Shown here piece after piece: positions 3,662-18,913 of a stretch of DNA of 24,000 nucleotides. The stretch covers positions 1,947,620-1,971,619 of the forward strand of contig NZ_OZ201293.1 in assembly GCF_964332355.1 (NCBI RefSeq), in the 5' to 3' direction. The notes beneath the pieces are model-generated. The model saw only the letters and a list, made by a program, of their open reading frames with translations, was not told the origin of the DNA and searched no databases. The translations under genes and the position numbers were made by a program. Source of the stretch: Imbroritus primus (GTDB lineage Bacteria; Pseudomonadota; Gammaproteobacteria; Burkholderiales; Burkholderiaceae). Numbering within the stretch: the first letter of the stretch is position 1; the number at the start of each line of letters is the position of its first letter.

Positions 3662-5422
3662 ATGACACAGCAACTGAACGAAACGACTCAGCCTATCGTG
3701 CCGAGCCCGATCGAAAAACTCGAAGCCATTCTGCACGCCGGCGATACCGCCGCTACCGCACCGCAGGCCACCGACTCCCCCTTCGCCGCGCTTGGCCTCA
3801 ATGCCAATCTGCAACGCGCTCTCGCGGAAATCGACTTCACCCAGCCGACCGAAGTCCAGGCCAAGGCGATCCCTGCCTCGCTGGCCGGACGCGACCTGCT
3901 GGTCTCGAGCCAGACCGGTTCGGGCAAAACGGCCGCTTTCATGCTGCCAGCACTGCAACTGATCAGCGAGAAGCCGGCCCCTGCCCGTCCGCACTCTGAC
4001 GAACCAGTCAAGCGTATGAAGGGGAAGCGCCCGCGTCCGCAGCCGGCGCAACCTTCGCTGCTGGTGCTGACGCCCACGCGCGAACTGGCGCTGCAGGTAA
4101 GCAATGCCACCCTGCAGTTCGGCAAGCACCTGCGCCGCATTTTCTGCGCCAGCATCCTTGGCGGCATGCCGTATCCCAAGCAGTTGGCCATGCTGGCCAA
4201 GATGCCGGACATCCTGGTCGCCACGCCGGGCCGCCTGCTCGACCATATCGCCTCGGGCCGCATCGACCTGTCCAAGCTGGACATGCTGGTGTTCGACGAA
4301 GCCGACCGCATGCTCGACATGGGCTTCACCGATGACATCGACGCTATCGTCGCCGCCACGCCGGCAACGCGCCAGACGCTGATGTTCTCGGCCACCGTGG
4401 ACGGCAACATCGCCCGCCTGGCAGCGCGCATGCTGCGCGATCCGCAGCGCATCGAAATCGCCGCGGCGAAGGTAACGGCGAACAACATCGAACAGCGCCT
4501 GCACTATGCGGATGACCTGTCGCACAAACAGCAACTGCTCGACCATCTGCTGCGCGACGTGTCGCTCAAGCAGGCCATCGTCTTCACCGCCACCAAGCGT
4601 GACGCCGACTCGCTCGCCGAACGCCTGGCCGACACGGGCTTTTCCGCTGGGGCGTTGCATGGCGACATGAACCAGGGTGCGCGCAACCGCATGCTGACCG
4701 CCCTGCGGCGCGGCAACATCCAGGTGCTGGTGGCCACCGATGTAGCCGCTCGCGGCATCGACGTACCGGACATCACGCACGTGGTGAACTTCGACCTGCC
4801 GAAGCAGGCCGAGGACTATGTGCACCGTATCGGCCGCACGGGCCGCGCCGGCCGCGCCGGCATCGCCATCAACCTGGTGAACCACGGTGAAGTGTTCCAG
4901 TGGCGCCGCATCGAGCGCTTCATCGACCGTCGCCTGGACGCCACGGTCATCGCCGGTCTTGAACCCAAGCGCAGCGCTGCCCGCAGTGCACCCAAGGGCA
5001 AGCCGCGCTTCGAGGGCCGTCCTGGCCAGTCGCGCCAGGGACGTCCGGGTGGCAATGGCGGCGGATATGGTGGCGGACGCAGCGAAGGTTTCCGTGGTGA
5101 CGGTTTCCGCAACGACGGCCCGCGCCACGATGGTTACCGCGCAGACGGCTACCGTGGCAAACCCGGTGGCCGACCGGACGGCTTCCGCGGCAACGCGGAC
5201 AACCGCGGCAATGTGGAAGGCGCCAATGTGAACACCAACCCGTGGGCCAACACGCGCCGCAACGATGGCGGCTACCGTGGCCAAGCCACCGGCGACCGCT
5301 ATCGCGGCGATGGTGCGGGCAACGGCTTCGGCAACCGCAACGGTGACTATCGCGGCGCGGCGCGCCCGCGCAGCAACGACGGCTTCCGTGCTGGCGGCCG
5401 GTCGCGCTTCAACGACCGCTGA
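3662..5422 (+). CDS. rhlE: ATP-dependent DEAD-box RNA helicase, RhlE-like, with long C-terminal RG-rich tail
   Basis: The Q-motif region is [10 protein letters not shown]. Helicase motifs are I ([11 protein letters not shown]), Ia (PTRELA), II ([13 protein letters not shown]), III (SAT), V (ARGID) and VI ([10 protein letters not shown]). The core is colinear with E. coli RhlE as I remember it. Confidence 0.9.
4970..5419 (+). repeat. low-complexity Arg/Gly/Asn/Asp tail of the helicase with about 10 copies of a [DN]G[FY]R(G) motif
   Basis: The translated tail contains [25 protein letters not shown]...PDGFRG...GGYRG...DRYRGDG...GDYRG...NDGFRAG. Confidence 0.8.
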
Positions 5423-5531
5423 TCGCCTGCTGATCGATTGGCATCGCACGCCCCGGCGGGTTTACTCGCCGGCTGCGATCACAATGCCAGCCTCCGTTGC
5501 GCATGATTAGCCGCGCATCACGCCAGCGTGA

Positions 5532-6791
5532 TCACACGGCGCATGAGCGGAACCCGATCCAGCCAAGGTCGGCACCGGGTTCCGCCGCCCCTCTGAAACA
5601 GGCGCTGCGGAATGCAGGCGGCGTCATCCACGCCGCCCCGCGTACCGCTTGGTACACGCCAAAGTAAGGCAAACTCCAGGTATCGTCACGCCCCGGCAGG
5701 AATCCATCGTAGGGTTCGAACACCGAACCGGTCCATTCGCGTACGCTGCCCCACTGGAAAGTGCCATTGCGGGTTGCGGCCATCTCCCACTCATCCTCGG
5801 TCGGCAAACGACGACCCGCCCAACGGCACCATGCTTCCGCCTCGAACAGGCTGACATGGCAGACCGGCTCATCCAGCGGCAACACGATATCGCTGCCAAA
5901 GCGCTGCATATGCCAGCGCACTGTCCGCCCCCCCTCGCGCTGGCGCGACCAGTAGCGCGCCACGGAGCGTTCCTGGAACATCATCCATTGCTGACCGGCG
6001 GCACTCCACCAGGCCGGGTTGTCGTAACCACCATCTTCCACAAATGCCAGGAATTGGCGATGACTCACTGGCGCTGCGTCGATCTCGAAGGGCGGGACAT
6101 AGGTGCGCTGCGCCGGGCGTTCGTTGTCGAACGAGAGTCCTTGGCCCGCATCCCGGCCCAGTGTCATGCGTCCACCGGTAAACGAAAGCGTCCCGGGTTC
6201 GCAACGCCATGGCGCGCGGGCCATGCCACCGGGCAAGGGGCGGCCCAGCGCCTGCAGAATGGCGATCAAGCCTTCCGCCTCCAGCACCTCGCGGAACAAG
6301 GTCATGCGAAAAGGTTCGAGGGCCTCGTCGGAATCATCATGCAGGTTTGTGAGCTGCGCCAGGATGCGTTCAAGCGTGTTGGCCGCATAGGCCTTGATGA
6401 CCGCCAGCTCAGGAAGTGTGACTTCCCAGCGCGTGTCAGGCGGAATCCGGTCGGCATCGAACCACGCATCAGCGCCATCCAGCAAGGTGGGCGCGGCCGG
6501 CTCCCAGAGAGAACCGGCAGGGCCGCGGATTTCGGAGGGATCGCGCAGGCACCATTTCTCGCCATACCAGGCCAGGTTGCCGAGCGTCCACTGCGGCGGA
6601 GAAAACTCATGGCTGGGCATCAGACGCCAGTTGCGCTCATGCATGCCAAATGCGGCCAGCAAGCTCAACGTGCGGTTGCGTGCGTCGACCAGCGCGTGTG
6701 CAATGCCCTGACGAGGCATGGTGCGCGCGTCGTGCCAGGAATCCCCGGCACCCGTGAAATACAGGTCCGGCAACATGAAGAACCCCGCCAT
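5532..6791 (-). CDS. EgtB-like protein (DinB-like N-terminal domain plus FGE-sulfatase/SUMF1 C-terminal domain), apparently lacking the canonical His triad
   Basis: The C-terminal half has FGE-sulfatase hallmarks (RGAAW...IGFRSC). The N-terminal half has a DinB/EgtB-like SPPQWTLGNLAWYGEKW motif. The gene lies directly downstream of egtD. I chose the start at the ATG at 6791 because GAGGA sits 8 nt upstream. ATGs at 6821 and 6923 are alternatives. Confidence 0.72.
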   Translation of the reverse strand: MAGFFMLPDLYFTGAGDSWHDARTMPRQGIAHALVDARNRTLSLLAAFGMHERNWRLMPSHEFSPPQWTLGNLAWYGEKWCLRDPSEIRGPAGSLWEPAAPTLLDGADAWFDADRIPPDTRWEVTLPELAVIKAYAANTLERILAQLTNLHDDSDEALEPFRMTLFREVLEAEGLIAILQALGRPLPGGMARAPWRCEPGTLSFTGGRMTLGRDAGQGLSFDNERPAQRTYVPPFEIDAAPVSHRQFLAFVEDGGYDNPAWWSAAGQQWMMFQERSVARYWSRQREGGRTVRWHMQRFGSDIVLPLDEPVCHVSLFEAEAWCRWAGRRLPTEDEWEMAATRNGTFQWGSVREWTGSVFEPYDGFLPGRDDTWSLPYFGVYQAVRGAAWMTPPAFRSACFRGAAEPGADLGWIGFRSCAV

Positions 6792-6874
6792 GAAATGAGT
6801 CCTCGGATCAGGAACCTTCATTATGGCATCGTCGGCCGCCGGCCTGCACACGCACGCCCTGCCATGAGCTGCGT

Positions 6875-7906
6875 CTAGCCGCGCGCGTGGAATACTGCGA
6901 AGGCGTCCTGACGGTCGTGCCACACACAGATGTCATCGAAGCCAGCCTGCTCGAGCAACAGGGCAAAATCCTCGTCGCGATATTTGTATGAACTCTCGGT
7001 ATGGATACGCTCGCCATGCAGAAAGCGGCGGGTTCCGCCTGACCAGGTCACAGTTACATCGCGCCGGGCCTGCAGGTGCATTTCGATGCGGTTGTGTGCG
7101 GCATTGAACAGGGCGATGTGTTGCCAGTCCCCCACCTCGAAATCCGCACCGGCAAGGCGATTGACGTGTCGCAGGATGTTGAGGTTGAAGGCCGCCGTTA
7201 CGCCGAGCGGATCGTCATACGCATCTTCGAGCGTCTCCACCGACTTGAGCAGGTCAACCCCGATCAGCACTCCGTCGCCCCGCGCGCTTGCCGCACGGAT
7301 GCGCTGCAGGAGCGCCAAGGCTTCGATCGGCGTAAAGTTCCCGATGCTCGATCCGGGGTAAAAAAACAGTCGGTTGTCACGTCCCACCGTGGACGGAAAA
7401 TCGAATGGCGTCGATAGGTCGGCGCCGACCGCCTGCATGGCGATCTCGGGAAACTGGCGTTGCAATCCTTCGAGCGTATCGCGCAGGTACTCCACCGAGA
7501 TATCCACGGGGACATACTGCGCCGGTCGCAAGGCAGGAAACAGCCGCGCCGCTTTCTGGCAATTGCCGGCCCCCAGGTCGATCATCACCGGCCGCTCGCC
7601 GATCCGTCTCGCGATATCGTGCTGGTGTGTCGCCAGAATCTCTGCTTCGACGCGCGTCGGATAGTACTCGGGCAAGGCAGTGATCGTGTCAAACAAGCGC
7701 GAGCCAAGTCCATCGTAGAAAAACTTGGGCGACAGCCATGCACGCGGCGCCGTCAGGCTGGCGGTGATTTCGGCACATGCGGCATCGGGGTGCTTGGCGA
7801 ACTCTGCGCGGGATGCACTGCGTGCACGGTCAGGACGAACGGATGCGGGACGGGTAGCTGGCCGGACTTCAGGCGGTGACGATTGCGACGACAGGACTCC
7901 TGGCAT
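6875..7906 (-). CDS. egtD: L-histidine N-alpha-methyltransferase (EgtD family, SAM-dependent)
   Basis: EgtD-family motifs are SPKFFYDGLGSRLFDTITALPEYYPTRVEAEIL, the SAM site IDLGAGN, YPGSSIGN, AYDDPLGVTAAFNLNIL and TESSYKY. The start is the ATG at 7906, preceded by a strong AGGAGG. The track ORF extends to 8293, but that extension has no support. Confidence 0.85.
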   Translation of the reverse strand: MPGVLSSQSSPPEVRPATRPASVRPDRARSASRAEFAKHPDAACAEITASLTAPRAWLSPKFFYDGLGSRLFDTITALPEYYPTRVEAEILATHQHDIARRIGERPVMIDLGAGNCQKAARLFPALRPAQYVPVDISVEYLRDTLEGLQRQFPEIAMQAVGADLSTPFDFPSTVGRDNRLFFYPGSSIGNFTPIEALALLQRIRAASARGDGVLIGVDLLKSVETLEDAYDDPLGVTAAFNLNILRHVNRLAGADFEVGDWQHIALFNAAHNRIEMHLQARRDVTVTWSGGTRRFLHGERIHTESSYKYRDEDFALLLEQAGFDDICVWHDRQDAFAVFHARG

Positions 7907-8302
7907 GCTTGCTCCTCCTTGGTGGGTACGGACCTCAAGCAGTGACCATGCCAGCCAGCGCAGCCTCGCGGGATAAACATGCAGATGCGATGGCCGTGCA
8001 TCACCGGACACTACCCGGACCATATCAGTGGCAAGGCGATGACAGCCGCCGTCGTCTCCTGCATGAAGCGGACGGCCGCCAGCGTCGGGACTCATCTTAC
8101 TCCCGCATATGTGATACGGCCACCACGAAATACGGGACATGCGTAGCGATCCCGTGACGCATACGTGGCTAATGGCTGCAAGTGTCTGCTCCTCTGCATT
8201 TTTTTGCACAACGATTGTAAAGTTGACACCGCCTACGCCACGCAGCTTGAAAATCCGGGCCGCCTCCTGCCAGCCCCGATTATTGCAATGCACAGCAATG
8301 AA

Positions 8303-9403: not shown

Positions 9404-10198
9404 ATGAAACAATACCTCGACCTGATGCGCCACGTGTATGAGCATGGCGTGGAAAAATCGGACCGGACCGGTACCGGCACACGCTCGGTCTTTGGCCACC
9501 AGATGCGCTTCGATCTGCAGCAGGGTTTTCCCATGGTGACGACCAAGAAGCTACATCTGAAATCCATCATTTATGAGCTGTTGTGGTTTCTCCAGGGCGC
9601 AACCAATGCGCGCTGGCTGCAGGAGCACGGCGTAACGATCTGGGATGAATGGGCCGATGCCAGCGGCGAACTGGGGCCGATCTATGGTTACCAATGGCGT
9701 TCCTGGCCGGCGCCGGATGGCCGCCACATCGACCAGATCAGCCAGTTGATGGACCAGTTGCGCAGCAATCCCGATTCGCGCCGCCTGATCGTATCGGCTT
9801 GGAACGTGGCCGATATCCCGCGCATGAAACTGCCGCCGTGCCACGCTTTCTTCCAGTTCTACGTGGCCGAGGGCAAGCTGTCGTGCCAGCTATACCAGCG
9901 CAGTGCCGACATCTTCCTGGGCGTGCCGTTCAACATCGCCAGCTACGCCCTGCTCACGCACATGATCGCCCAGCAAGCGGATCTCGATGTCGGTGATTTC
10001 GTCTGGACCGGCGGCGACTGCCACCTCTACAGCAACCATTTCGAACAGGTCCGCACGCAACTGGCCCGTGAGCCCATGCCGCTGCCGACCCTGAACTTCA
10101 CACGCAAGCCGGATTCGATCTTCGACTACCGTTTCGAGGACTTCGATATTGCCGGCTACACCTCCCATCCGGCCATCAAGGCCCCGGTTGCCGTTTGA
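9404..10198 (+). CDS. thyA: thymidylate synthase
   Basis: The N-terminus is [31 protein letters not shown], and the active-site region is [12 protein letters not shown]. The protein is 264 aa from the ATG at 9404. Confidence 0.97.
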
Positions 10199-10268: not shown

Positions 10269-10772
10269 GTGACCATCCTGACCCTGATCGTCGCCAAGTC
10301 CCGCAATCACGTCATTGGCCGTGACAACACGCTGCCGTGGCGCCTCCCCGAGGACCTCGCGCATTTCCGCCGCACGACCATGGGCGCGCCAATCCTGATG
10401 GGCCGCAAGACCTACGAGTCGATCGGCCGTCCTCTGCCGGGCCGGCGCAATATCGTCATCAGCCGTAACCGGGATCTGGTCATCGCAGGTTGCGAAGTCG
10501 CGCATTCGCTTGAAGAGGCGCAACTGCTCTGCATCGGTGTGGAGGAAATCTTCCTCGTCGGCGGTGCGCAGCTGTATGCCGAGGCGTTGCCCAGCGCGGA
10601 CCGGCTGATCGTTACCGAAGTGGATATCGAGATCGATGGTGACGCGTTTTTTCCACCCATCGACCGGAAAGTATGGCGGGAAACCGCGCGCGAAACACAT
10701 CGGGCGGCACCGCCAAATACCTTTTCCTTTGCGTTCGTCACCTACGAGCGCCTGCCATCCCAGGCCGAGTGA
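10269..10772 (+). CDS. folA: dihydrofolate reductase
   Basis: DHFR motifs are [22 protein letters not shown] and [10 protein letters not shown]. It uses a GTG start and lies immediately downstream of thyA. Confidence 0.95.
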
Positions 10773-10805: not shown

Positions 10806-10829
10806 TGTATCACGGCTGATACACTTTTG
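10806..10829 (+). terminator. weak terminator-like hairpin downstream of folA
   Basis: TGTATCA (10806..10812) and TGATACA (10817..10823) form a 7-bp stem with a CGGC loop, followed by CTTTTGG. The stem is short and AT-rich. Confidence 0.25.
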
Positions 10830-10911: not shown

Positions 10912-10947
10912 CGCGATATCGGTTTCACGCCTGAAACCGATATCGCG
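10912..10947. promoter_or_regulatory. perfect 16-bp-arm inverted repeat, either a candidate enhancer (UAS) for the sigma54 activator or a strong hairpin/terminator
   Basis: The sequence is CGCGATATCGGTTTCA-CGCC-TGAAACCGATATCGCG. Its centre is about 84 bp upstream of the -24 GG and about 108 bp upstream of the predicted TSS. It is followed by ACGTTTT. Confidence 0.4.
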
Positions 10948-11011
10948 ACGTTTTCCAGTCATCTCGCGCATCCTCTCCGCCACACCGCCAGCCTGCGGGG
11001 CACATCGCCCG

Positions 11012-11027
11012 TGGCACGCTTGTCGCT
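11012..11027 (+). promoter_or_regulatory. sigma54 (RpoN) -24/-12 promoter of the fap-like operon
   Basis: TGGCACGCTTGTCGCT compares with the consensus TGGCACG-N4-TTGCW. GG and GC have the correct spacing, and there is one mismatch in the -12 element. A sigma54 activator gene lies next to the operon. Confidence 0.65.
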
Positions 11028-11051
11028 ATGGTGTGGGCGAGGGAGAAAGCC

Positions 11052-11522
11052 ATGACGCCTACAACTACATACGTCTGGCGGGGGGAGCCTGCGCGCATCT
11101 TGTGTCTGATGATGCTGTGTGCCGCCGCCGTTCTCGCAGCAATGCCTGCCCAGGCTGACAGCGGGGATATCGTGGTCCTGCGCGAGGTGGCACCACGCGT
11201 GGCCTACCGGGGCCTACCGCGCAACGAAATCCCCGAACACACCGTTATTGATACCTTCCCGCAGCAGCAGTTTGCCCAGGCGACCGACCTTGAACTCGGC
11301 CGTGCTCAGGCCGGACCGCTGCGCTCTGTCCAGGCACAGATCGCCATCGGCAATCCGGCCACCAGCATGGCCCAGCCAGGATCGCTGCTGAGCGACGCGC
11401 TGATCGGAGGTGGCCGGCGCGACGGTGGTGGTGGTATTGCAGATCGCGTGCAACAGGCCACCGGCATGATTTCCGGAGCGGTGGGCCAGGCGCTTGCCCC
11501 ATTGAGCGGAGGCGCGCGATGA
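11052..11522 (+). CDS. fapA: secreted protein in the first position of the fap-like operon (FapA-like by position)
   Basis: The ATG at 11052 has GGGAGA 6-7 nt upstream. The track start at 11028 would lie inside or upstream of the sigma54 promoter. The signal peptide ends ...AAVLAAMPAQA|DSG. The C-terminus is Gly-rich. The stop overlaps the next start (ATGA at 11519..11522). I recognised no family motif, so the assignment is positional. Confidence 0.55.
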   Translation: MTPTTTYVWRGEPARILCLMMLCAAAVLAAMPAQADSGDIVVLREVAPRVAYRGLPRNEIPEHTVIDTFPQQQFAQATDLELGRAQAGPLRSVQAQIAIGNPATSMAQPGSLLSDALIGGGRRDGGGGIADRVQQATGMISGAVGQALAPLSGGAR

Positions 11523-12124
11523 ACCGCAATCCGCGTGCATTCGCCTGGCTATCCATCTTCGTCATGCTGTGGTTCGGCCCGGCTCAGGCGCAAAGCATCG
11601 CTCCCCTGCCCGCCAGCCTGTCGACACGGATCGATGATGCAGCAGGCAGTGACATGCGCGGCCGCGTCGCCGTGAACGTGGCGGCAGGCGCAGGGAACGC
11701 CCAATCCAACACGGCTGTTCTGGCGCCAGACGGCGTCGCCGTCGTGCGCCAGAACCAGGCGGCGCGCATCCAGGCCGGACCGGGCGCGGCGTCGAGCCAT
11801 ATCGGCGCCGATGTCTTCCAGAACGCCAATGGCTTGCTCAGCCTCAACATGGCAAGTGGCTACGGCAACCTGCAGGGCAATACCGTCGCGGTCGCACAGG
11901 CCGTCGAGATCGAAACGGTTGCGGACAGCATGCTGCAGTCCACCACCGCGCACAGGAGTCGCAGCGATGCACCCGTTGTCGTGCCATCGCACCGCCAGGC
12001 AACGGTTCACCCGGATGCCTTCGCCGGTGCCAATGGCATCGTCCAGGTGAATCAGGCGGCAGGATCGGGGAATGTCGCATCCAACGTTTTTGTGCTCCGT
12101 CCCCCGGCGGGCACTTTTTTCTAA
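11519..12124 (+). CDS. fapB: FapB-like amyloid subunit (minor/nucleator type) with three degenerate Fap repeats
   Basis: The signal peptide ends ...WFGPAQA|QS. The three repeats are GRVAVNVAAGAGNAQSN, GLLSLNMASGYGNLQGN and GIVQVNQAAGSGNVASN. The protein ends in Phe. Confidence 0.8.
   Translation: MNRNPRAFAWLSIFVMLWFGPAQAQSIAPLPASLSTRIDDAAGSDMRGRVAVNVAAGAGNAQSNTAVLAPDGVAVVRQNQAARIQAGPGAASSHIGADVFQNANGLLSLNMASGYGNLQGNTVAVAQAVEIETVADSMLQSTTAHRSRSDAPVVVPSHRQATVHPDAFAGANGIVQVNQAAGSGNVASNVFVLRPPAGTFF
11660..12085 (+). repeat. span of the three imperfect amyloid repeats in FapB-like protein
   Basis: The repeat cores are at about 11660..11710, 11828..11881 and 12029..12085. The shared pattern is xNxAxGxGNxxxN. 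Confidence 0.75.
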
Positions 12125-12143
12125 GTGAAGGCAGGAGAATGTC

Positions 12144-12983
12144 ATGAAAGCAAAACTTGTTGCACTGGCAGCATTGGCCACGCTGTCTTCCGGCGTCGTC
12201 TTTGCCGGGTCGGGATATGGGTCGCATGACAAGCCGGATGATGCGGATATCTACAACTACACGCATCTGTCCAATGACATCCATGTCGCCGGATACGGGC
12301 TGGCACTGGGTCTGATCAAGTTCGGCGCGGAATCGGCCGCCACGGTCAACAGCGATCAGATCAGCATGTTCGGCACGACGATGAATTTCGGTGGCGAAAA
12401 CAAGGCACGCCTTGGTGGTAATGCGCTGCGCGGCGCGGAAGGCAATATCGGTGTGAACGTGTCGGCTGGCGCGGGCAATGCCCAGGCCAACGACGCGGCA
12501 CTGACCGCAGTGGATGGCGGCGGCTCGTCGCATAGCAACGGATATCGCAAGGATCACAAGGACAACGATGCGGCAGCCGTATTTGCAGCGGCACAGGTGT
12601 TCTCGTCGCAGACTGGCAAGTCGAACCTCGCGATGGTATCCAATGCGGAAAACGTCGCATCCCTCAACGGCAATGCGCTGCGCAATGCGGCGGGCAATAT
12701 CGGCGTGAACATCGCATCGGGCGCCGGCAACCTGCAGAACAATGGCATGGCCGGTTCGACCAACAGCTCTGGCACGCTGGCGAAGGCCACGTCGTCCAAT
12801 GCCCAGGCATCGTTCGGCAACGTGCTGTTTGAGCTGGGCTGCGATCCGGTCAACAGCGCCGTGGTTTCCGGCAATGCACTGCGCGGGGCGACCGGCAACA
12901 TCGGTCTGAACCTGACGGCTGGCGCTGGCAACCTGCAGCACAACGGTCTGGCCATTGCCACGGCGACTGCGCCGCGGAATTGA
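12144..12983 (+). CDS. fapC: FapC-like major functional-amyloid subunit with three well-conserved repeats
   Basis: AGGAGA lies upstream of the ATG. The signal peptide ends ...SSGVVFA|GSG. The repeats are GNALRGAEGNIGVNVSAGAGNAQAN, GNALRNAAGNIGVNIASGAGNLQNN and GNALRGATGNIGLNLTAGAGNLQHN. They closely resemble the GNIGVNVAAGAGNQQSN repeats I remember from Pseudomonas FapC. Confidence 0.85.
   Translation: MKAKLVALAALATLSSGVVFAGSGYGSHDKPDDADIYNYTHLSNDIHVAGYGLALGLIKFGAESAATVNSDQISMFGTTMNFGGENKARLGGNALRGAEGNIGVNVSAGAGNAQANDAALTAVDGGGSSHSNGYRKDHKDNDAAAVFAAAQVFSSQTGKSNLAMVSNAENVASLNGNALRNAAGNIGVNIASGAGNLQNNGMAGSTNSSGTLAKATSSNAQASFGNVLFELGCDPVNSAVVSGNALRGATGNIGLNLTAGAGNLQHNGLAIATATAPRN
12417..12944 (+). 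repeat. three 75-nt imperfect direct repeats encoding the FapC-like amyloid core
   Basis: The repeats are at 12417..12491, 12669..12743 and 12870..12944. Similarity is visible at the DNA level (ggcaatgcgctgcgc...ggcaatatcggtgtgaac...ggcgc.ggcaa...cag..caa). The linkers are 59 and 42 codons. Confidence 0.85.
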
Positions 12984-13062
12984 TGGTCCGTTTCACGGCA
13001 CCATGTGCCGCACGCGGTGGCCGTCCACGGATGGCCACCGCCCTGGGATGACGAGACACGCC

Positions 13063-13755
13063 ATGCGCCTCTATACGATCCTCGCCGCACCTCTGACAGG
13101 ATGGCTCCTGTGCAGTGGCGTGGCCGCGCAGACGGCCGTGCCGCTGCAGATCGACGGGCAGCCGGCAATCACCAAGCGCGTGACGAGCCTGGCCGCGATG
13201 CGTTACCGCAATGTGATGCGCCAGGAACTGGATTTCAGTTGCGGCGCGGCAGCGCTCGGTACGTTGCTGCGGTATGGCTATGGGGTCGATATCGAAGAAC
13301 GCCGCATCATCAGCGACATGCTCAAGATATCGGACGCCGAGGAAGTCATGCGGCGCGGATTTTCAATGCTGGACATGCGCAACTATGTCGAGACGCTCGG
13401 CTTTCGTGGCACAGGATTCCGTGTCGAACTGAGCGCGCTGCGGCAACTCAGGATTCCCGTGATCGTCCTTCTGGACATCAAGGGATACCAGCATTTCGTC
13501 GTGGTACGCCAGGCGGCGGAAGGACGGGTATTCGTCTCCGACCCTGCGCTGGGCAACCGCATCATGCCGGAGCATGAATTTGCCGAAGCATGGAACAACC
13601 TCGTGTTTGCCGTGATCGGCCAGCCTTTCCCGCAAACGTCAGAGCTGCTCAAGGCCGACGCGCCTGTACTCCGCCAGCGCACCGACGCGGCGATGCGTGC
13701 AGGCGCGCGGGCGCCGTCAGTCGATTTCGGGCTGGCGCACATGGATTTTTTCTGA
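13063..13755 (+). CDS. fapD: periplasmic stand-alone C39-family cysteine peptidase (FapD-like)
   Basis: The signal peptide is MRLYTILAAPLTGWLLCSGVAAQTA. The C39 motifs are QELDFSCGAAALGTLL (Cys codon at 13240..13242), GYQHFVVV (His) and VSDPALG (Asp). An alternative start exists at 13048. Confidence 0.8.
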   Translation: MRLYTILAAPLTGWLLCSGVAAQTAVPLQIDGQPAITKRVTSLAAMRYRNVMRQELDFSCGAAALGTLLRYGYGVDIEERRIISDMLKISDAEEVMRRGFSMLDMRNYVETLGFRGTGFRVELSALRQLRIPVIVLLDIKGYQHFVVVRQAAEGRVFVSDPALGNRIMPEHEFAEAWNNLVFAVIGQPFPQTSELLKADAPVLRQRTDAAMRAGARAPSVDFGLAHMDFF

Positions 13756-13756
13756 C

Positions 13757-14515
13757 ATGAACAACGCTCGCTGGATTCTTCCCATGACCCTGCTGGCATG
13801 TGGCACGCCAGCCTGGTCAGCCGCGCCGGTCCAGCCCGTGATGGTCGAGCTGGTCGATGATGGTGAACTTGCTGCCGCGCGCGGCAAATACCTCGGCCAG
13901 TTCGTCGTAACAGGATTCATGGTTGAAATGGCGACGCAATGGCTCAATCATGAAGCGCTTGCCACGGCAAGTGCGCGCCTGACCGCTGCCGGTCTCGATC
14001 GCGGCGGCCACCCGGAAGTCTCTGTGAATACCGCCGCAAACGTCAATGCGTCGGCGCAGGCTTCTTCTGCCCCCGCGCCTGCCGGTGTAGCCGGTCTGCA
14101 GATCAGCGGGCTCGGGCAGATCTCGCAGATCGCTGGCGATGGCAACACCATGGCCAATGTCACAACCATCGCCTTCCAGCGTGAGCCGCTGCCAGGCGCT
14201 GGGCCAGGCGGCACCACGACAAGCGATGCGGCTGCGGCCGGCTATCGTGCCCACGCCGCCATCGCCGGCAATACCTTGCTGATTGGCGTAGCGACACCCA
14301 ATGGGGTCGCAACCCAGGCAATTCAATCCCGCGCTCATTCGGTCAATACCGGTGGAGCGGGCAACCTGATGCAGACGGCGCAGATCGTCGGCCATCAACA
14401 ACAAGTCGTTAACCAGATGTCGGTGCAGCTCCAGATCCGGTCGATGAGTGCCAGCCAGTTGTCGCAGATCGGTATCGGACAAGCACTGGAGGCAGTTTCG
14501 ATGTTGCGTCGTTAG
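13757..14515 (+). CDS. fapE: secreted FapE-like protein with two degenerate Fap-type repeats
   Basis: The ATG lies 1 nt after the fapD stop. The signal peptide is MNNARWILPMTLLACGTPAWS|AAP, with a possible LLAC lipobox. Repeat-like segments are QISQIAGDGNTMAN and VNTGGAGNLMQTAQ. The assignment is partly positional. Confidence 0.6.
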   Translation: MNNARWILPMTLLACGTPAWSAAPVQPVMVELVDDGELAAARGKYLGQFVVTGFMVEMATQWLNHEALATASARLTAAGLDRGGHPEVSVNTAANVNASAQASSAPAPAGVAGLQISGLGQISQIAGDGNTMANVTTIAFQREPLPGAGPGGTTTSDAAAAGYRAHAAIAGNTLLIGVATPNGVATQAIQSRAHSVNTGGAGNLMQTAQIVGHQQQVVNQMSVQLQIRSMSASQLSQIGIGQALEAVSMLRR

Positions 14516-14574
14516 CCATGCGCTCACTGGTTTGAACAGGTAAGTGCCTGGCTTTTTTCCGGGGGGAAACAGCC

Positions 14575-15816
14575 ATGTCAAGCAAGCGTCAATGGGCGAC
14601 AGCTCTGGTAGGTGTACTCCTGCCGATCGCCGCCGCCAGTCAGGAAGTCATCGGTCAGGATCCACGCGTTCCGGAGTTGATGCGCCAGATCGAGCGTCAA
14701 TCAACTCTGATCCAGGCGCTCGAAAACCGGCTCAATGAACTTGAGATGCGCCAGACGCGGGGCCGAGGTACCGATGGGCCGATGCTGGCACAAGCCGGCG
14801 GCGACAGCCGCACGCCGGAAGTGACCATCGGCTCGGAGGCACGCGATACCCAGCAGCAGGCGCGCGTACAGAGCAAGGACCTCATCTACCAGACCGAGCA
14901 CGCCCCGCTGTTCGAGCGCCGCTTTACCATCGACGCCGGTTTCAGTTATAGCTACTACGATCGAAGGCGGTTGGCACTGAGCGGCTTCCTGGCGTTGGAT
15001 GCGATTTTCCTCGGCACCATCAATCTCGACCAGACCAAGTCGAGCACCCTTACCTGGGATGTCACTGGCCGCTACGGGCTCACGGACCGCCTCAGCATCG
15101 ATGCCAACGTGCCGTTCGTCTACCGCAACAGCTCATTCTTTTCGGGCGGTGCGGGCGGCGCGGCGACGGTGGTCAGCGAAGCCAGCAAATCGTCTACCAA
15201 TATCGGCGACGTCAGTGTCGGGCTGTACTATCAGCTCATCAAGGAAGCCGCCGGCGTGCCGGACGTGGTAGCAAGCTTGCGTGTACGCGCGCCGACTGGC
15301 AAGGCGCCGTTCGGCATCAAGCTGGTGCAGGCCGATGCGACCAACACTAACCTGAATATCGAGGAAAGCCTGCCGACTGGTAATGGCGTTTGGAGCGGCA
15401 CCCTCGGCCTGTCGTTCCTGAAAACGTATGACCCGATCGTACTGTTTGCCAGCCTCGGCTATACGTACAACAAGCCGCAGTCCTTCTCCGATATTTCGTC
15501 GGTCCAGGGCGTTGTCACGCCTGGCCGCGTCAAGCTCGGCGACTCGATCAACGTCGGTGGTGGTCTCGCCATTGCGCTGAACGACCGGACCGCGCTGTCA
15601 ATGGCATACAGCAACGTGTTTTCGCGCGCCACCAAGGTCACCACGGCGACGGGCACGCAATCGGTGATCGGCAGCAAGACCAATGCGGCAACGATGACTT
15701 TCGGCCTGAATCACGTCCTGACGAAGAATCTTTCGATCAGTGCTTCGCTGGCGCTGGGTATGACACCGGACGCACCGAACTATGTGTTCGGCTTGCGATT
15801 CCCTTACACGTTTTGA
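14575..15816 (+). CDS. fapF: outer-membrane beta-barrel secretion channel with N-terminal coiled coil (FapF-like)
   Basis: The signal peptide ends ...LLPIAAAS|QEV. A heptad-like helix PELMRQIERQSTLIQALENRLNELEMRQ occupies 14665..14754, followed by a polar disordered linker. The rest shows the alternating-residue pattern of beta strands, with Gly/Ser/Thr/Asn-rich stretches between them. The C-terminus is OMP-like (FGLRFPYTF). Confidence 0.75.
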   Translation: MSSKRQWATALVGVLLPIAAASQEVIGQDPRVPELMRQIERQSTLIQALENRLNELEMRQTRGRGTDGPMLAQAGGDSRTPEVTIGSEARDTQQQARVQSKDLIYQTEHAPLFERRFTIDAGFSYSYYDRRRLALSGFLALDAIFLGTINLDQTKSSTLTWDVTGRYGLTDRLSIDANVPFVYRNSSFFSGGAGGAATVVSEASKSSTNIGDVSVGLYYQLIKEAAGVPDVVASLRVRAPTGKAPFGIKLVQADATNTNLNIEESLPTGNGVWSGTLGLSFLKTYDPIVLFASLGYTYNKPQSFSDISSVQGVVTPGRVKLGDSINVGGGLAIALNDRTALSMAYSNVFSRATKVTTATGTQSVIGSKTNAATMTFGLNHVLTKNLSISASLALGMTPDAPNYVFGLRFPYTF

Positions 15817-15877
15817 CGCATAAAGGGGGGAGAACACGGTATCCACAAGGTTCGAGCCTGATATCGTGTGCGACTTG

Positions 15878-15908
15878 GAGGCCCATCGCCAGATCGGGCC
15901 TCTTTTTT
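15878..15908 (+). terminator. rho-independent terminator closing the fap-like operon
   Basis: GAGGCCC (15878..15884) pairs with GGGCCTC (15896..15902), with inner ATC/GAT pairing. It is followed by TTTTTT (15903..15908), which overlaps the stop codon of the convergent regulator gene. Confidence 0.7.
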
Positions 15909-17274
15909 ATGGCAGGTATTTTTCGATGGATTCGAGCCGATCATCGGCGCGGATGCCATGCTTCTGCATCAGCCGATACAGCGTGACGCGTGACACGTTC
16001 AGTTCGCGTGCCGCCGGACAAACGTGATTGCCATTGCGTGCGATCACCTGCCGGATGATATTTCGCTCCGCCTGCTGCCGCGCCCCTTCGAGTGTGATGG
16101 GATCGGAGGCACTGTGATCCACAAGCTGGAGATCGGCTGCAGTCAGGGTACGCCCTTCGGACATGACGATCGCGCGGCGGACACGATTGATGAGTTCTCG
16201 CACATTGCCTGGCCAGGAGTAACTCATCATCGCTCGCATGGCACATGCCGAAAAGCCGCGGATCTTGCGCTGGGCTTCGCCCTGATGCTGACGCAGGACA
16301 TTCTCCGCGAGCAGCAGGATATCCTCGGAGCGCTCGCGCAGGGGTGGGATTTCCAGTGTCAGCACGCATAGGCGGTGATAAAGGTCGCTGCGGAACAGTC
16401 CTTCACGCTGCGCCGCGCCCACGTCGACATGCGTCGCCGAGATGATGCGAATATCGAGCTCGATCGATTCATGCCCACCCAGCCGCGTGATCGTGCCTTG
16501 CTGGAGAAAGCGCAGCAGGCTGACCTGACTTTCCAGCGGCAAGTCACCGATCTCGTCGAGAAACAGCGTGCCATGATTGGCCTGCTCGATCCAGCCGATC
16601 TTGCGCTGGTTCGCGCCGGTGAACGCACCACGCTCATAGCCGAACAGTTCTGACTGGATGAGATTGGGCGGAATGGCCCCGCAATTGATGGCGATAAAAG
16701 GCTTGTCGCGTCGGCGTGACATATGGTGGATCGACTGCGCAGCCAGTTCCTTGCCGACTCCGGACTCGCCGAAGATGAATACCGGCGCATTGTTGCGCGC
16801 CACCTTGCCAATGGTGCGCAACAAACGCTTCATGACATCGCTGCGCCCCAACATCGGGCCGCTTTCCAGCGGAGATGGCGGCTCGTACGCACGCAGCCTG
16901 GCCATGCCATAGGCGTGGCGCAATGAATAGGCCACCTCGTCGCACGAGAACGGTACCTGCACGTAGTCCACACAGTAGTCGAGGATCAGGCGTCGCAAGC
17001 GTGGATCTTCCAGTTCCATGGTCCGCGCTGCGACCACCCAGCCGACGTGCGGCTGGGGCAACATGCGTTCCATCAACGCGAGATCGGCCGAGGTGACGCC
17101 GCCCGTACAATCGAGCAAGGCGGCCATGCAGTGGCCTTGGCGCACCACTTCCTGAGCCTGGTGGATCGAGTTGGCGTGGATCACATTCCAGCCGGCACCC
17201 AGGACAGGCACGTCGATACCACAATTGTCTGACGGCGAAACGATCAACGCCGTCCATCCCGTCATCCCTGCCAC
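15907..17274 (-). CDS. sigma54-dependent transcriptional activator (bEBP) with atypical receiver-like N-terminal domain and Fis-type HTH
   Basis: AAA+ motifs are Walker A GESGVGKE, the sigma54-contact loop GAFTGA (16612..16629) and Walker B LFLDEIG. WPGNVRELIN is present, and the C-terminal HTH is AARELNVSRVTLYRLMQKHGI. A GTG start at 17274 has AAGGAGAG 6-8 nt upstream. An ATG at 17265 is the alternative. Confidence 0.9.
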   Translation of the reverse strand: MAGMTGWTALIVSPSDNCGIDVPVLGAGWNVIHANSIHQAQEVVRQGHCMAALLDCTGGVTSADLALMERMLPQPHVGWVVAARTMELEDPRLRRLILDYCVDYVQVPFSCDEVAYSLRHAYGMARLRAYEPPSPLESGPMLGRSDVMKRLLRTIGKVARNNAPVFIFGESGVGKELAAQSIHHMSRRRDKPFIAINCGAIPPNLIQSELFGYERGAFTGANQRKIGWIEQANHGTLFLDEIGDLPLESQVSLLRFLQQGTITRLGGHESIELDIRIISATHVDVGAAQREGLFRSDLYHRLCVLTLEIPPLRERSEDILLLAENVLRQHQGEAQRKIRGFSACAMRAMMSYSWPGNVRELINRVRRAIVMSEGRTLTAADLQLVDHSASDPITLEGARQQAERNIIRQVIARNGNHVCPAARELNVSRVTLYRLMQKHGIRADDRLESIEKYLP

Positions 17275-17419: not shown

Positions 17420-17447
17420 AGCATAGATCAGAATGGGCAACAGTCAA
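17420..17447 (-). promoter_or_regulatory. candidate sigma70 promoter for the sigma54 activator gene
   Basis: On the minus strand, TTGACT (17447..17442) is followed by a 16-nt spacer and TATGCT (17425..17420). This would give a leader of about 140 nt. Confidence 0.35.
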
Positions 17448-17554: not shown

Positions 17555-18913
17555 TCAGCTGCCGGCAACAGTCATCTGGCCGATCAGAATCGAACCGGTT
17601 TCCTTGGTGCCGCGCACCAGTGTATCCGCGCCGACTGCGACGATGTCGCGGAACATGTCGCGCAGGTTTCCGGCGATGGTGATTTCCTCGACCGGATACT
17701 GGATCACGCCATTCTCCACCCAATACCCCGACGCCCCGCGGGAATAGTCACCCGTCACGTAATTGACACCCTGCCCCATCAGTTCCGTGACCAGCAGGCC
17801 AGTACCCATCTTGCGCAACATGGCCGCGAAGTCGTCACCAGACGCGGTACGCGTACTGCGCAGTGTCAGATTATGGGATCCACCGGCATTGCCGGTCGTC
17901 TGCATGCCGAGCTTGCGGGCCGAATAGGTCGACAGGAAATATCCCTCCACGACGCCATCGCGCACCACCGCGCGCTGGCGCGTGCGGACGCCTTCTTCGT
18001 CGAACGGGGCACTCCCCATGCCGCGCGAGACGTGCGGGTTTTCCTCGATCTGCACATGCGGAGCAAAGACTTCACGACCGAGGGAATCCAGCAGGAAAGT
18101 CGAGCGACGATATAGTGCCCCACCCGACACAGCTTGCACGAAGGCACCCAGCAGGCCCGCCGCCAGCGGCGCCTCGAACAGTACCGGGCACTTGCGGGTG
18201 GCCAGTTTGCGGGCGTTCAGGCGCGCCAGTGCACGCGCAGCGGCATAGCGACCCACGGCTTCGGGATCAGCCAGGTCGTCCGGCGCACGCTTGGAGGTAT
18301 ACCAGTCGTCACGCTGCATGCCATTGCCCGAGCCAGCAATCGGCGCCACCGAAATGAAATGGCGGGAATATGGATAGCCCCCGGAGAATCCCCGGGTGGT
18401 GGCAAGGATGAACTGCGAATGCTGGGCCGAGACGCTCGCGCCATCACTGTTGCGAATCTTTGGGCTCACGGCCATGGCTGCTGCCTCGGCACGGCGCGCC
18501 AGTTCCACGGCGGCCTCGGCATCGATGGTCCAGGGATGGAACAAGTCTAGTTCAGGCGGTTGCTGCTCCAGCAACTCCTCTTCAGCGAGGCCGGCGCAGT
18601 CATCCTCGGCGGTGAAACGCGCGATGTTGTAGGCAGCCTCGGCCGTTGCCTGCAGTGCGGAGGGCGAAAAATCGGAGGTACTGGCATTGCCGCGGCGCTG
18701 GCCGATCAGGACCGTCACCCCCACGACCTTGTCGCGATTCTGCTCAATAGTCTCGATCTCCCCTTTGCGTACCGAGACCGACAGGCCGCCGCCCTCGGAA
18801 ATTTCCGTGGCGGCATCGGTCGCGCCGAGCGCACGGGCCATGCGCAGGACATCCGCAGCCATCTGCTTGAGTTCATCCTGGGTATGGGCAAAGAAACGGG
18901 TCGGATCGGTCAT
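17555..18913 (-). CDS. pmbA: metalloprotease PmbA (TldE)
   Basis: This is a full-length PmbA/TldD-family protein (452 aa). Its N-terminus resembles PmbA (LKQMAADVLRMARALGATDAATEISEGGGLSVSVRKGEIETIE). It is divergent from yjgA, as in E. coli. Confidence 0.9.
   Translation of the reverse strand: MTDPTRFFAHTQDELKQMAADVLRMARALGATDAATEISEGGGLSVSVRKGEIETIEQNRDKVVGVTVLIGQRRGNASTSDFSPSALQATAEAAYNIARFTAEDDCAGLAEEELLEQQPPELDLFHPWTIDAEAAVELARRAEAAAMAVSPKIRNSDGASVSAQHSQFILATTRGFSGGYPYSRHFISVAPIAGSGNGMQRDDWYTSKRAPDDLADPEAVGRYAAARALARLNARKLATRKCPVLFEAPLAAGLLGAFVQAVSGGALYRRSTFLLDSLGREVFAPHVQIEENPHVSRGMGSAPFDEEGVRTRQRAVVRDGVVEGYFLSTYSARKLGMQTTGNAGGSHNLTLRSTRTASGDDFAAMLRKMGTGLLVTELMGQGVNYVTGDYSRGASGYWVENGVIQYPVEEITIAGNLRDMFRDIVAVGADTLVRGTKETGSILIGQMTVAGS

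Follow-up and report, generated by a model that had tools for sequence, protein, structure and literature searches.

A fapABCDEF functional-amyloid operon of Imbroritus primus with a conserved sigma-54 promoter and a helically phased enhancer-like repeat

We analyzed a 24,000-nucleotide (nt) stretch of Imbroritus primus DNA (contig NZ_OZ201293.1 of assembly GCF_964332355.1, forward-strand positions 1,947,620–1,971,619; hereafter the window, numbered from its first letter), which carries homologs of all 6 genes of the Fap functional-amyloid system and, convergent to them, a gene for a sigma-54 activator. The fap genes are co-oriented and tightly packed, with thyA (9404–10198) and folA (10269–10772) upstream and pmbA (17555–18913, − strand) downstream. 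The genes of the system are the following:

11052–11522, + strand: fapA, 156 amino acids (aa), secreted chaperone-like protein; NCBIfam model chaperone_FapA, E = 4.5e-9, profile positions 11–140 of 146
11519–12124, + strand: fapB, 201 aa, minor or nucleator amyloid subunit; FapB model, E = 3.6e-24, profile positions 10–185 of 190
12144–12983, + strand: fapC, 279 aa, major amyloid subunit; FapC model, E = 2.4e-21
13048 or 13063–13755, + strand: fapD, 235 aa, stand-alone periplasmic C39 peptidase; C39_FapD model, E = 6.9e-61, profile positions 11–224 of 224
13757–14515, + strand: fapE, 252 aa, secreted accessory protein; FapE model, E = 7.9e-14, profile positions 1–229 of 247
14575–15816, + strand: fapF, 413 aa, outer-membrane secretion channel; FapF model, E = 2.5e-117, profile positions 10–420 of 420
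15907–17274, − strand: BrfA-type sigma-54 enhancer-binding protein, 455 aa; VpsR-type receiver-like domain, AAA+ domain with GAFTGA, Fis-type helix-turn-helix

The gene fapA overlaps fapB by 4 nt (ATGA), and the gaps that follow measure 19 nt (fapB–fapC), 64 or 79 nt (fapC–fapD), 1 nt (fapD–fapE), and 59 nt (fapE–fapF). All 6 genes are intact and have ribosome-binding sites. The start of fapA is assigned to the ATG at 11052, which is preceded by GGGAGA and agrees in position with the starts in relatives; the ATG at 11028 given by the open reading frame (ORF) finder was rejected, as it falls within the sigma-54 promoter described below. By inspection, the N-termini of all 6 proteins resemble Sec signal peptides, each with a charged n-region followed by a hydrophobic core and a cleavage site of the AxA type. 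The close packing between thyA–folA and pmbA and the signal peptides on every product had both been described in the first-pass annotation of this DNA, which was made from the letters alone, and both are present.

The same annotation had called the operon a complete fapABCDEF. Profile searches against the Fap families and the FapF structure, which it had proposed as a check, related all 6 proteins to the system: in NCBIfam, each protein is matched best by the Fap model of its own name, from FapA to FapF in gene order and with near full-length coverage. FapF matches the crystal structure of FapF (PDB 5o65) with an E-value of 5.9e-89 over residues 99–413, which form the barrel; residues 33–60 (PELMRQIERQSTLIQALENRLNELEMRQ) are heptad-like by eye and would correspond to an N-terminal coiled coil, and the N-terminal region is included in the coverage of the FapF model. 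FapC aligns through its repeats to the FapC fibril structures 9u4u (E = 1.6e-12) and 9nqd (E = 2.9e-12), and these matches of FapF and FapC to solved structures are enough to settle the fold. FapC has 3 imperfect repeats of the form GNALRxAxGNIG(V/L)NxxxGAGNxQxN (approximately residues 92–116, 176–200, and 242–266) and a composition of 11.8% Asn, 14.3% Gly, and 17.9% Ala. FapB has 3 looser imperfect repeats (approximately residues 43–64, 96–121, and 164–189). Pfam-A recognizes only the C39 domain of FapD (PF03412 Peptidase_C39, E = 9.7e-22) and a barrel family in FapF; it gave no match for FapA, FapB, FapC, or FapE, and the copy searched apparently lacks the newer FapBC family PF27129, a family that does occur in precomputed annotations of the loci. 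FapD has a signal peptide by inspection and no ABC-transporter domains. The 3-repeat proteins, the stand-alone C39 peptidase, and the barrel of the first reading are FapB and FapC, FapD, and FapF. The order A-B-C-D-E-F is the same in approximately 80 related loci, in which the first place of fapA is likewise conserved.

Directly upstream of fapA lies the predicted promoter of the operon:

11012–11027, + strand: sigma-54 (−24/−12) promoter TGGCACGCTTGTCGCT, 11 of 12 consensus positions matched

This is the sole site in the window that scores at least 11/12 with the GG and GC in place, and it is the near-consensus promoter that the first reading had picked out. When one genome per species was scanned, at least 588 genomes encoded a relative of FapF; the best 80 loci were fetched, and 78 fap loci were compared for their promoters. 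The sequence TGGCAC-N5-TCGCT was present upstream of the fap operon in 77 of these 78 loci, which come from Burkholderiaceae, Xanthomonadales, and Pseudomonas. Transcription is predicted to start near 11037, 14–15 nt before the fapA ATG. By analogy, the window promoter would be dependent on RpoN, a dependence demonstrated only in Pseudomonas fluorescens PF07 (PMC9207406). Rfam matched no RNA family, riboswitches included, in the window or in the fapA leader, and a cyclic di-GMP (c-di-GMP) riboswitch as the signal input was ruled out on this basis.

The convergent gene is on the opposite strand, and 90 nt separate its end from fapF. Its product contains the domains VpsR (Pfam PF20161, E = 1.5e-13), Sigma54_activat (E = 1.3e-66), and HTH_8 (E = 2.6e-8), with GAFTGA at residue 216 and a Walker A motif (GESGVGKE) at residue 169. 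In a full-length alignment (439 residues, E = 9e-113), the protein shares 44% identity with the P. fluorescens activator that is convergent to fapF; the adjacent activator of the first-pass annotation has a homolog at a P. fluorescens fap locus. Nearly every fap locus has a VpsR-type activator linked to it, and the phylogeny of these activators agrees with taxonomy.

The regulation of fap in P. fluorescens PF07 has been described (Guo 2022, PMC9207406): an RpoN −24/−12 promoter upstream of fapA was mapped by rapid amplification of cDNA ends (5′RACE), fapA–E were down in the rpoN mutant, and fap expression and the biofilm matrix were both lost on deletion of rpoN or of brfA, the latter being an “adjacent reverse gene” of 1,326 bp downstream of fapF that is a required activator of fap expression. 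In the P. fluorescens locus that we fetched, fapA–F are followed by a convergent gene for a 441-aa VpsR/sigma-54 protein, a length that agrees with that of brfA. Comparison between the 2 loci revealed that (i) both have the same 6-gene order; (ii) in both, fapA is directly preceded by a sigma-54 promoter and a short leader; (iii) both have a convergent VpsR-type sigma-54 activator immediately downstream of fapF; and (iv) both have GTTTCA-N4-TGAAAC repeats upstream of the promoter, of which there are 2 copies in P. fluorescens. They differ in that (i) the −12 element is TCGCT in the window and CTGCT in P. fluorescens; (ii) the proximal repeat starts at −90 in the window and at −80 in P. fluorescens, and the window repeat continues outward into a perfect palindrome of 36 bp; (iii) the window activator has Asp (D55) at the receiver residue that is Arg in Pseudomonas; and (iv) the chromosomal neighbors are different. 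Identities to the P. fluorescens proteins are 25% for FapA, 30% for FapB (E = 1e-13), 31% for FapC, 41% for FapD, 27% for FapE (E = 2.6e-11), and 50% for the FapF barrel. The first-pass annotation had taken the sigma-54 promoter and its neighboring activator to be a departure from the Pseudomonas system. This departure does not exist; the window is a well-preserved example of a known arrangement.

We therefore consider it highly probable that the window holds a vertically inherited Burkholderiaceae fapABCDEF operon that is controlled as in P. fluorescens, a reading drawn by sequence analysis from the homology of 7 proteins, the promoter, the position of the enhancer core, and synteny. Several observations weigh against it. 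Looser matches to the −24/−12 consensus occur in the window at chance level (17 found, 16.75 expected); therefore, conservation across loci was used as the test of the promoter. The rpoN gene is located outside the window. The window activator retains D55, which is absent in Pseudomonas BrfA, and the residues that we take to be the c-di-GMP contacts of FleQ are conserved neither in the window activator nor in its P. fluorescens orthologue. The pairwise similarity of FapA to P. fluorescens FapA is not significant, and all 6 Fap scores fall below the NCBIfam equivalog cut-offs (392 against 700 bits for FapF, and 205 against 330 for FapD), which are naming thresholds and not a biological defining feature. 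We read these scores as divergence within the family, on the assumption that the models were calibrated on Pseudomonas sequences. Membership in the family was kept because the family as described in 2013 includes Burkholderiales (Dueholm et al., PMC3792158). That study catalogued Fap operons in Burkholderia and Ralstonia, and the window shares with its betaproteobacterial systems a single fapABCDEF operon and the repeats in FapB and FapC; a search of the paper found no mention of sigma factors and the word “regulator” once, in the reference list.

The input of the activator is most likely c-di-GMP and not a partner kinase, by analogy with 3 regulators of biofilm genes. The N-terminal domain family of the window activator, PF20161, is that of Vibrio cholerae VpsR, which binds c-di-GMP and activates biofilm matrix genes. 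VpsR works with sigma-70 and is not known to have a functional GAFTGA motif, whereas the window activator has an intact GAFTGA and a sigma-54 target promoter. Control of the vps genes by VpsR is independent of RpoN (PMC5552954). BerB (Bcam1342) of Burkholderia cenocepacia, likened here by description and not by sequence, is an RpoN-dependent enhancer-binding protein with GAFTGA at approximately residue 210, which binds c-di-GMP and controls biofilm matrix genes; unlike the window activator, it targets berA and Bep exopolysaccharide instead of fap and is encoded on another replicon (PMC5552954). BrfA itself is described as an enhancer-binding protein that senses c-di-GMP directly in the account of Guo 2024 (Microbiol Res 287:127864) given by a paper that cites it (PMC13101488). 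Neither BrfA nor BerB is mentioned in a review of c-di-GMP effectors.

The c-di-GMP input is also favored because the receiver-like domain lacks the canonical receiver Lys and no kinase gene lies nearby. The alternative is control through phosphorylation of D55 by an unlinked histidine kinase, or through another signal. D55 is kept in 130 of the 132 fap-linked activators, and Arg is found in just the 2 Pseudomonas orthologues of BrfA, those reported to use c-di-GMP; the presumed FleQ-type contacts are not retained. Since D55 is kept outside Pseudomonas, the input signal may differ across lineages. Against phosphorylation, the canonical Lys is missing in all members (position 107 is V, M, L, or T), the beta-1 acidic pair is non-canonical, the window contains no kinase gene, and relatives, some of the same architecture, are reported to bind c-di-GMP, namely BrfA (as cited in PMC13101488), BerB (PMC5552954), and VpsR. 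We consider an input other than c-di-GMP unlikely.

Upstream of the promoter are 3 nested or neighboring repeat elements:

10912–10947, + strand: perfect 36-bp palindrome CGCGATATCGGTTTCA-cgcc-TGAAACCGATATCGCG, 16-nt arms, 100% complementary
10922–10937, + strand: core inverted repeat GTTTCACGCCTGAAAC, putative activator binding site (upstream activating sequence), at the exact center of the palindrome, starting at −90 from TGGCAC
10806–10823, + strand: distal enhancer-like inverted repeat TGTATCACGGCTGATACA, which departs from the conserved core at 2 positions and contains the weaker core copy GTATCACGGCTGATAC (10807–10822)

Counted from the T of TGGCAC, the core GTTTCA-N4-TGAAAC (allowing up to 3 mismatches) begins 90–92 nt upstream in 74 of the 77 promoter-bearing loci, and exactly at −91 in 64 of them, with a background core frequency of 3e-4 per nt. 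The 3 exceptions are 2 strains of Cupriavidus basilensis (loci L010 and L011), in which the core is at −101, and P. fluorescens (L086), in which it is at −80; both positions represent a shift of approximately one helical turn. The series −80, −91, and −101 suggests that the activator site and the −24 element are constrained to a face of the helix. With up to 2 mismatches, the window contains 4 matches to the core against 0.25 expected, 2 of which are in the region upstream of fapA. The distal repeat, whose center is 116 bp upstream of that of the main palindrome, is also present in L006, a close relative with 97% identity. We take the conserved position of the core as strong evidence that it is the predicted binding site of the activator and that its helix face matters. 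The fixed distance favors a common DNA target of these activators but has no bearing on their ligand.

The palindrome had been reported in the first-pass annotation as a large upstream element. It is perfect, and its 16-bp center is the conserved element; its outer arms, by contrast, are specific to this lineage. The long outer arms (CGCGATATC...GATATCGCG) are not conserved in sequence, and among the upstream regions inspected they are confined to the window and L006, the other lineages having the short core only. In L006 the outer sequence differs yet still pairs, and the predicted RNA hairpins have energies of −27.3 kcal/mol (z = −6.1) in the window and −22.5 kcal/mol in L006. The palindrome might instead serve the upstream folA, chiefly as an intrinsic terminator or insulator hairpin, and not be an enhancer. 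Such a function is suggested by the high stability of the hairpin, by pairing that is retained despite the difference in sequence, by a short T-run that follows it (ACGTTTTCC), and by the distribution of the arms: among all compared loci, the window and L006 are the only ones in which folA is directly upstream and co-oriented. Against it, the 16-bp center keeps its distance to the −24 element in 74 of the 77 loci, some of which have a divergent upstream gene, an orientation that makes a terminator unneeded. The T-run, moreover, is short and lies 3 nt off the stem, and the palindrome was not among the terminators that the scan called. A terminator alone is thus distinctly improbable, and a dual role, in which the core is the enhancer and the arms are an insulator, accounts for all the data better. 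That the outer arms add a hairpin insulating fap from folA read-through is a guess.

With the core as the binding site, control of the operon would most likely proceed as follows. The activator, probably expressed from its own promoter, would bind the GTTTCA-N4-TGAAAC core within 10912–10947, and probably the weaker site at 10806–10823 too. The bound activator, whose center would lie upstream of both the −24 element (approximately 82 bp from its start) and the predicted transcription start (approximately 108 bp away), would reach the sigma-54 holoenzyme at 11012–11027 through DNA looping, and ATP hydrolysis and the GAFTGA loop would open the holoenzyme complex at TGGCAC-N5-TCGCT; the activity of the activator would most likely be set by c-di-GMP. 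The resulting transcript would give 6 Sec-exported proteins, whose roles are taken from the Pseudomonas literature. FapF would be the outer-membrane channel through which unfolded FapC, the major subunit, and FapB, the nucleator, are exported, and the 2 subunits would polymerize outside the cell into amyloid fibers that stiffen the biofilm matrix. FapA would act as a periplasmic chaperone, FapD as the C39 protease, and FapE as an accessory or minor fiber protein. For the window, DNA binding by the activator, c-di-GMP sensing, and amyloid formation are inferred from these better-studied relatives.

The genes could also be Fap homologs that give no amyloid, either because their product is of another kind (for example, an adhesin) or because the operon is silent. 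The identities to the studied Pseudomonas subunits are low, that is to say, 30% for FapB, 31% for FapC, and 25% for FapA, and every score is under its equivalog cut-off. By contrast, the FapC fibril structure can be aligned with both the 3-repeat architecture and the repeat motif, none of the 6 genes is disrupted and each has a ribosome-binding site and encodes a signal peptide, and conservation of the operon extends to at least 588 species genomes; we regard a non-amyloid or silent operon as highly unlikely. As an amyloid system, Fap resembles the curli of Enterobacteria (csgBAC–csgDEFG) in its dedicated secretion–nucleation pathway, its extracellular functional amyloid, and its imperfect-repeat subunits; unlike the window Fap, curli is encoded by 2 divergent operons, and its proteins are unrelated. 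RpoS also takes part in the regulation of curli. CsgD regulates curli without RpoN (PMC9207406).

Three further candidate signals accompany the operon and the activator gene:

14537–14560, + strand: terminator-like hairpin with T-run in the fapE–fapF gap, possible attenuator; consensus match only, the site count of the region being not above chance
15878–15908, + strand: hairpin GAGGCCC-(11 nt)-GGGCCTC followed by T6, likely fapF terminator, found by eye
17420–17447, − strand: sigma-70-like promoter candidate TTGACT-16-TATGCT for the activator gene; weak, a consensus match at chance frequency

The first hairpin could reduce the expression of fapF relative to fapA–E, which fits the finding that in PF07 fapF is not co-induced with fapA–E (PMC9207406). 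The second was not called in the terminator scan because its loop exceeds 8 nt, and its T6 runs into the stop codon of the activator gene, which is convergent.

The arrangement around fap varies among lineages. In Paraburkholderia, Burkholderia, Trinickia, and Pararobbsia, the order is thyA, a divergent activator, fap, a second, co-directional activator, folA, and pmbA; the 2 Paraburkholderia activator copies appear to be a lineage-specific duplication. Cupriavidus, Ralstonia, Xanthomonadales, Pseudomonas, and the window lineage have one convergent activator downstream of fap. In some Luteimonas and other Xanthomonadaceae loci, the activator is 4–6 kb from fapF, and in Pandoraea, it is upstream of fap. 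The closest of the best 80 loci, in the soil Burkholderiaceae metagenome-assembled genome SMAG_U13647, has 97% FapF identity and the gene order of the window; the window genome, guessed from its letters to be of betaproteobacterial type, belongs to Burkholderiaceae. The G+C content across the fap cluster is 0.60–0.66, similar to that of its flanks. The window contains no tRNA and the fap flanks contain no integrase, transposase, or other mobile-element genes, as the first reading had noted.

In loci of Paraburkholderia, Burkholderia, and Trinickia (L028 of Paraburkholderia dipogonis, 4950–6113; similar loci from L025 to L085), the promoter is approximately 1.1–1.2 kb upstream of fapB, compared with approximately 0.5 kb elsewhere. 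An extra gene for a secreted protein of approximately 165 aa (4993–5490 in L028) lies between the promoter and fapA. Loci of this type also have a much longer FapC (463 aa), and their operons are flanked by 2 paralogous VpsR-type activators.

The first-pass annotation had asked whether folA and pmbA are adjacent in relatives lacking the cluster. Species without fapDEF were found, and what they carry at the thyA/folA/pmbA site is a reduced locus: Burkholderia gladioli (L004, 7450–10001), B. pseudomallei (L089, 5803–8039), and B. territorii (L088, 7174–8001). In all 3, the activator is still present, together with the TGGCAT/C-N5-TCGCT promoter and, at −90 to −92, a perfect GTTTCA-N4-TGAAAC core. 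Judging from these loci, the regulatory module outlives the secretion genes in Burkholderia species without fapDEF. In the reduced loci, the module is placed to drive merely a 117-aa ORF, or small ORFs and a FapBC-domain protein. Ralstonia solanacearum (L001, 11377–12100) has an activator orthologue of 61% identity and no fapF within 10 kb. The promoter TGGCATGGATGTCGCT at 12044 (− strand) of this locus, with a core repeat at −91, faces an uncalled ORF that starts with MPATFAQ, a start that resembles that of Ralstonia fapA.

The fap cluster is thus best read as vertically inherited, with loss, at an ancestral Burkholderiaceae position. The notion that it is a recently acquired, self-contained genomic island, prompted by its place between the housekeeping genes thyA–folA and pmbA and by its own regulator, is rejected as scarcely credible, given that the same 3 genes flank fap in Paraburkholderia, Burkholderia, Trinickia, and Pararobbsia, that B. 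gladioli, B. pseudomallei, and B. territorii carry degraded remnants at this site, that the activator tree matches taxonomy and the G+C content matches the flanks, and that tRNA, integrase, and transposase genes are lacking in the window or flanks.

Taken jointly, the activator, the TGGCAC-N5-TCGCT promoter, and the core on one helix face (−80, −91, or −101) could form an ancient unit common to Pseudomonas, Xanthomonadales, and Burkholderiaceae. This unit may even outlive the amyloid genes, judging from its retention before small ORFs that stand as orphans in the B. cepacia complex, B. pseudomallei, and R. solanacearum; in the window lineage, the enhancer may have been extended to a 36-bp hairpin that also insulates fap from folA read-through, and D55 may add a second input absent from Pseudomonas BrfA. 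We put this joint reading forward only tentatively, as less likely than not. The conserved, helically phased enhancer and its retention before orphan ORFs are modest comparative findings; neither was found in the literature examined, which excluded Guo 2024.

The structure, secretion, and regulation of Fap are already under study in Pseudomonas, and the window itself matters little. The comparison predicts a DNA site for BrfA-type activators, GTTTCA-N4-TGAAAC in helical phase with the −24 element, and it points to sigma-54 control of Fap as general across 3 orders and not a peculiarity of P. fluorescens. The remnants of promoter and enhancer in Burkholderia pathogens without fapDEF are candidate extra targets of this BrfA-type biofilm regulator.

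The other genes of the window are of housekeeping type and include those for an ABC transporter, a DEAD-box helicase, a TerC-family protein, DarP, Mog, RNase T, and an M48 peptidase. An egtB/egtD-like pair lies at 5532–8293 (− strand), where a gene for an FGE-sulfatase-domain (EgtB-like) protein overlaps one for EgtD (Methyltransf_33, E = 3.6e-98), as in an ergothioneine biosynthesis pair.

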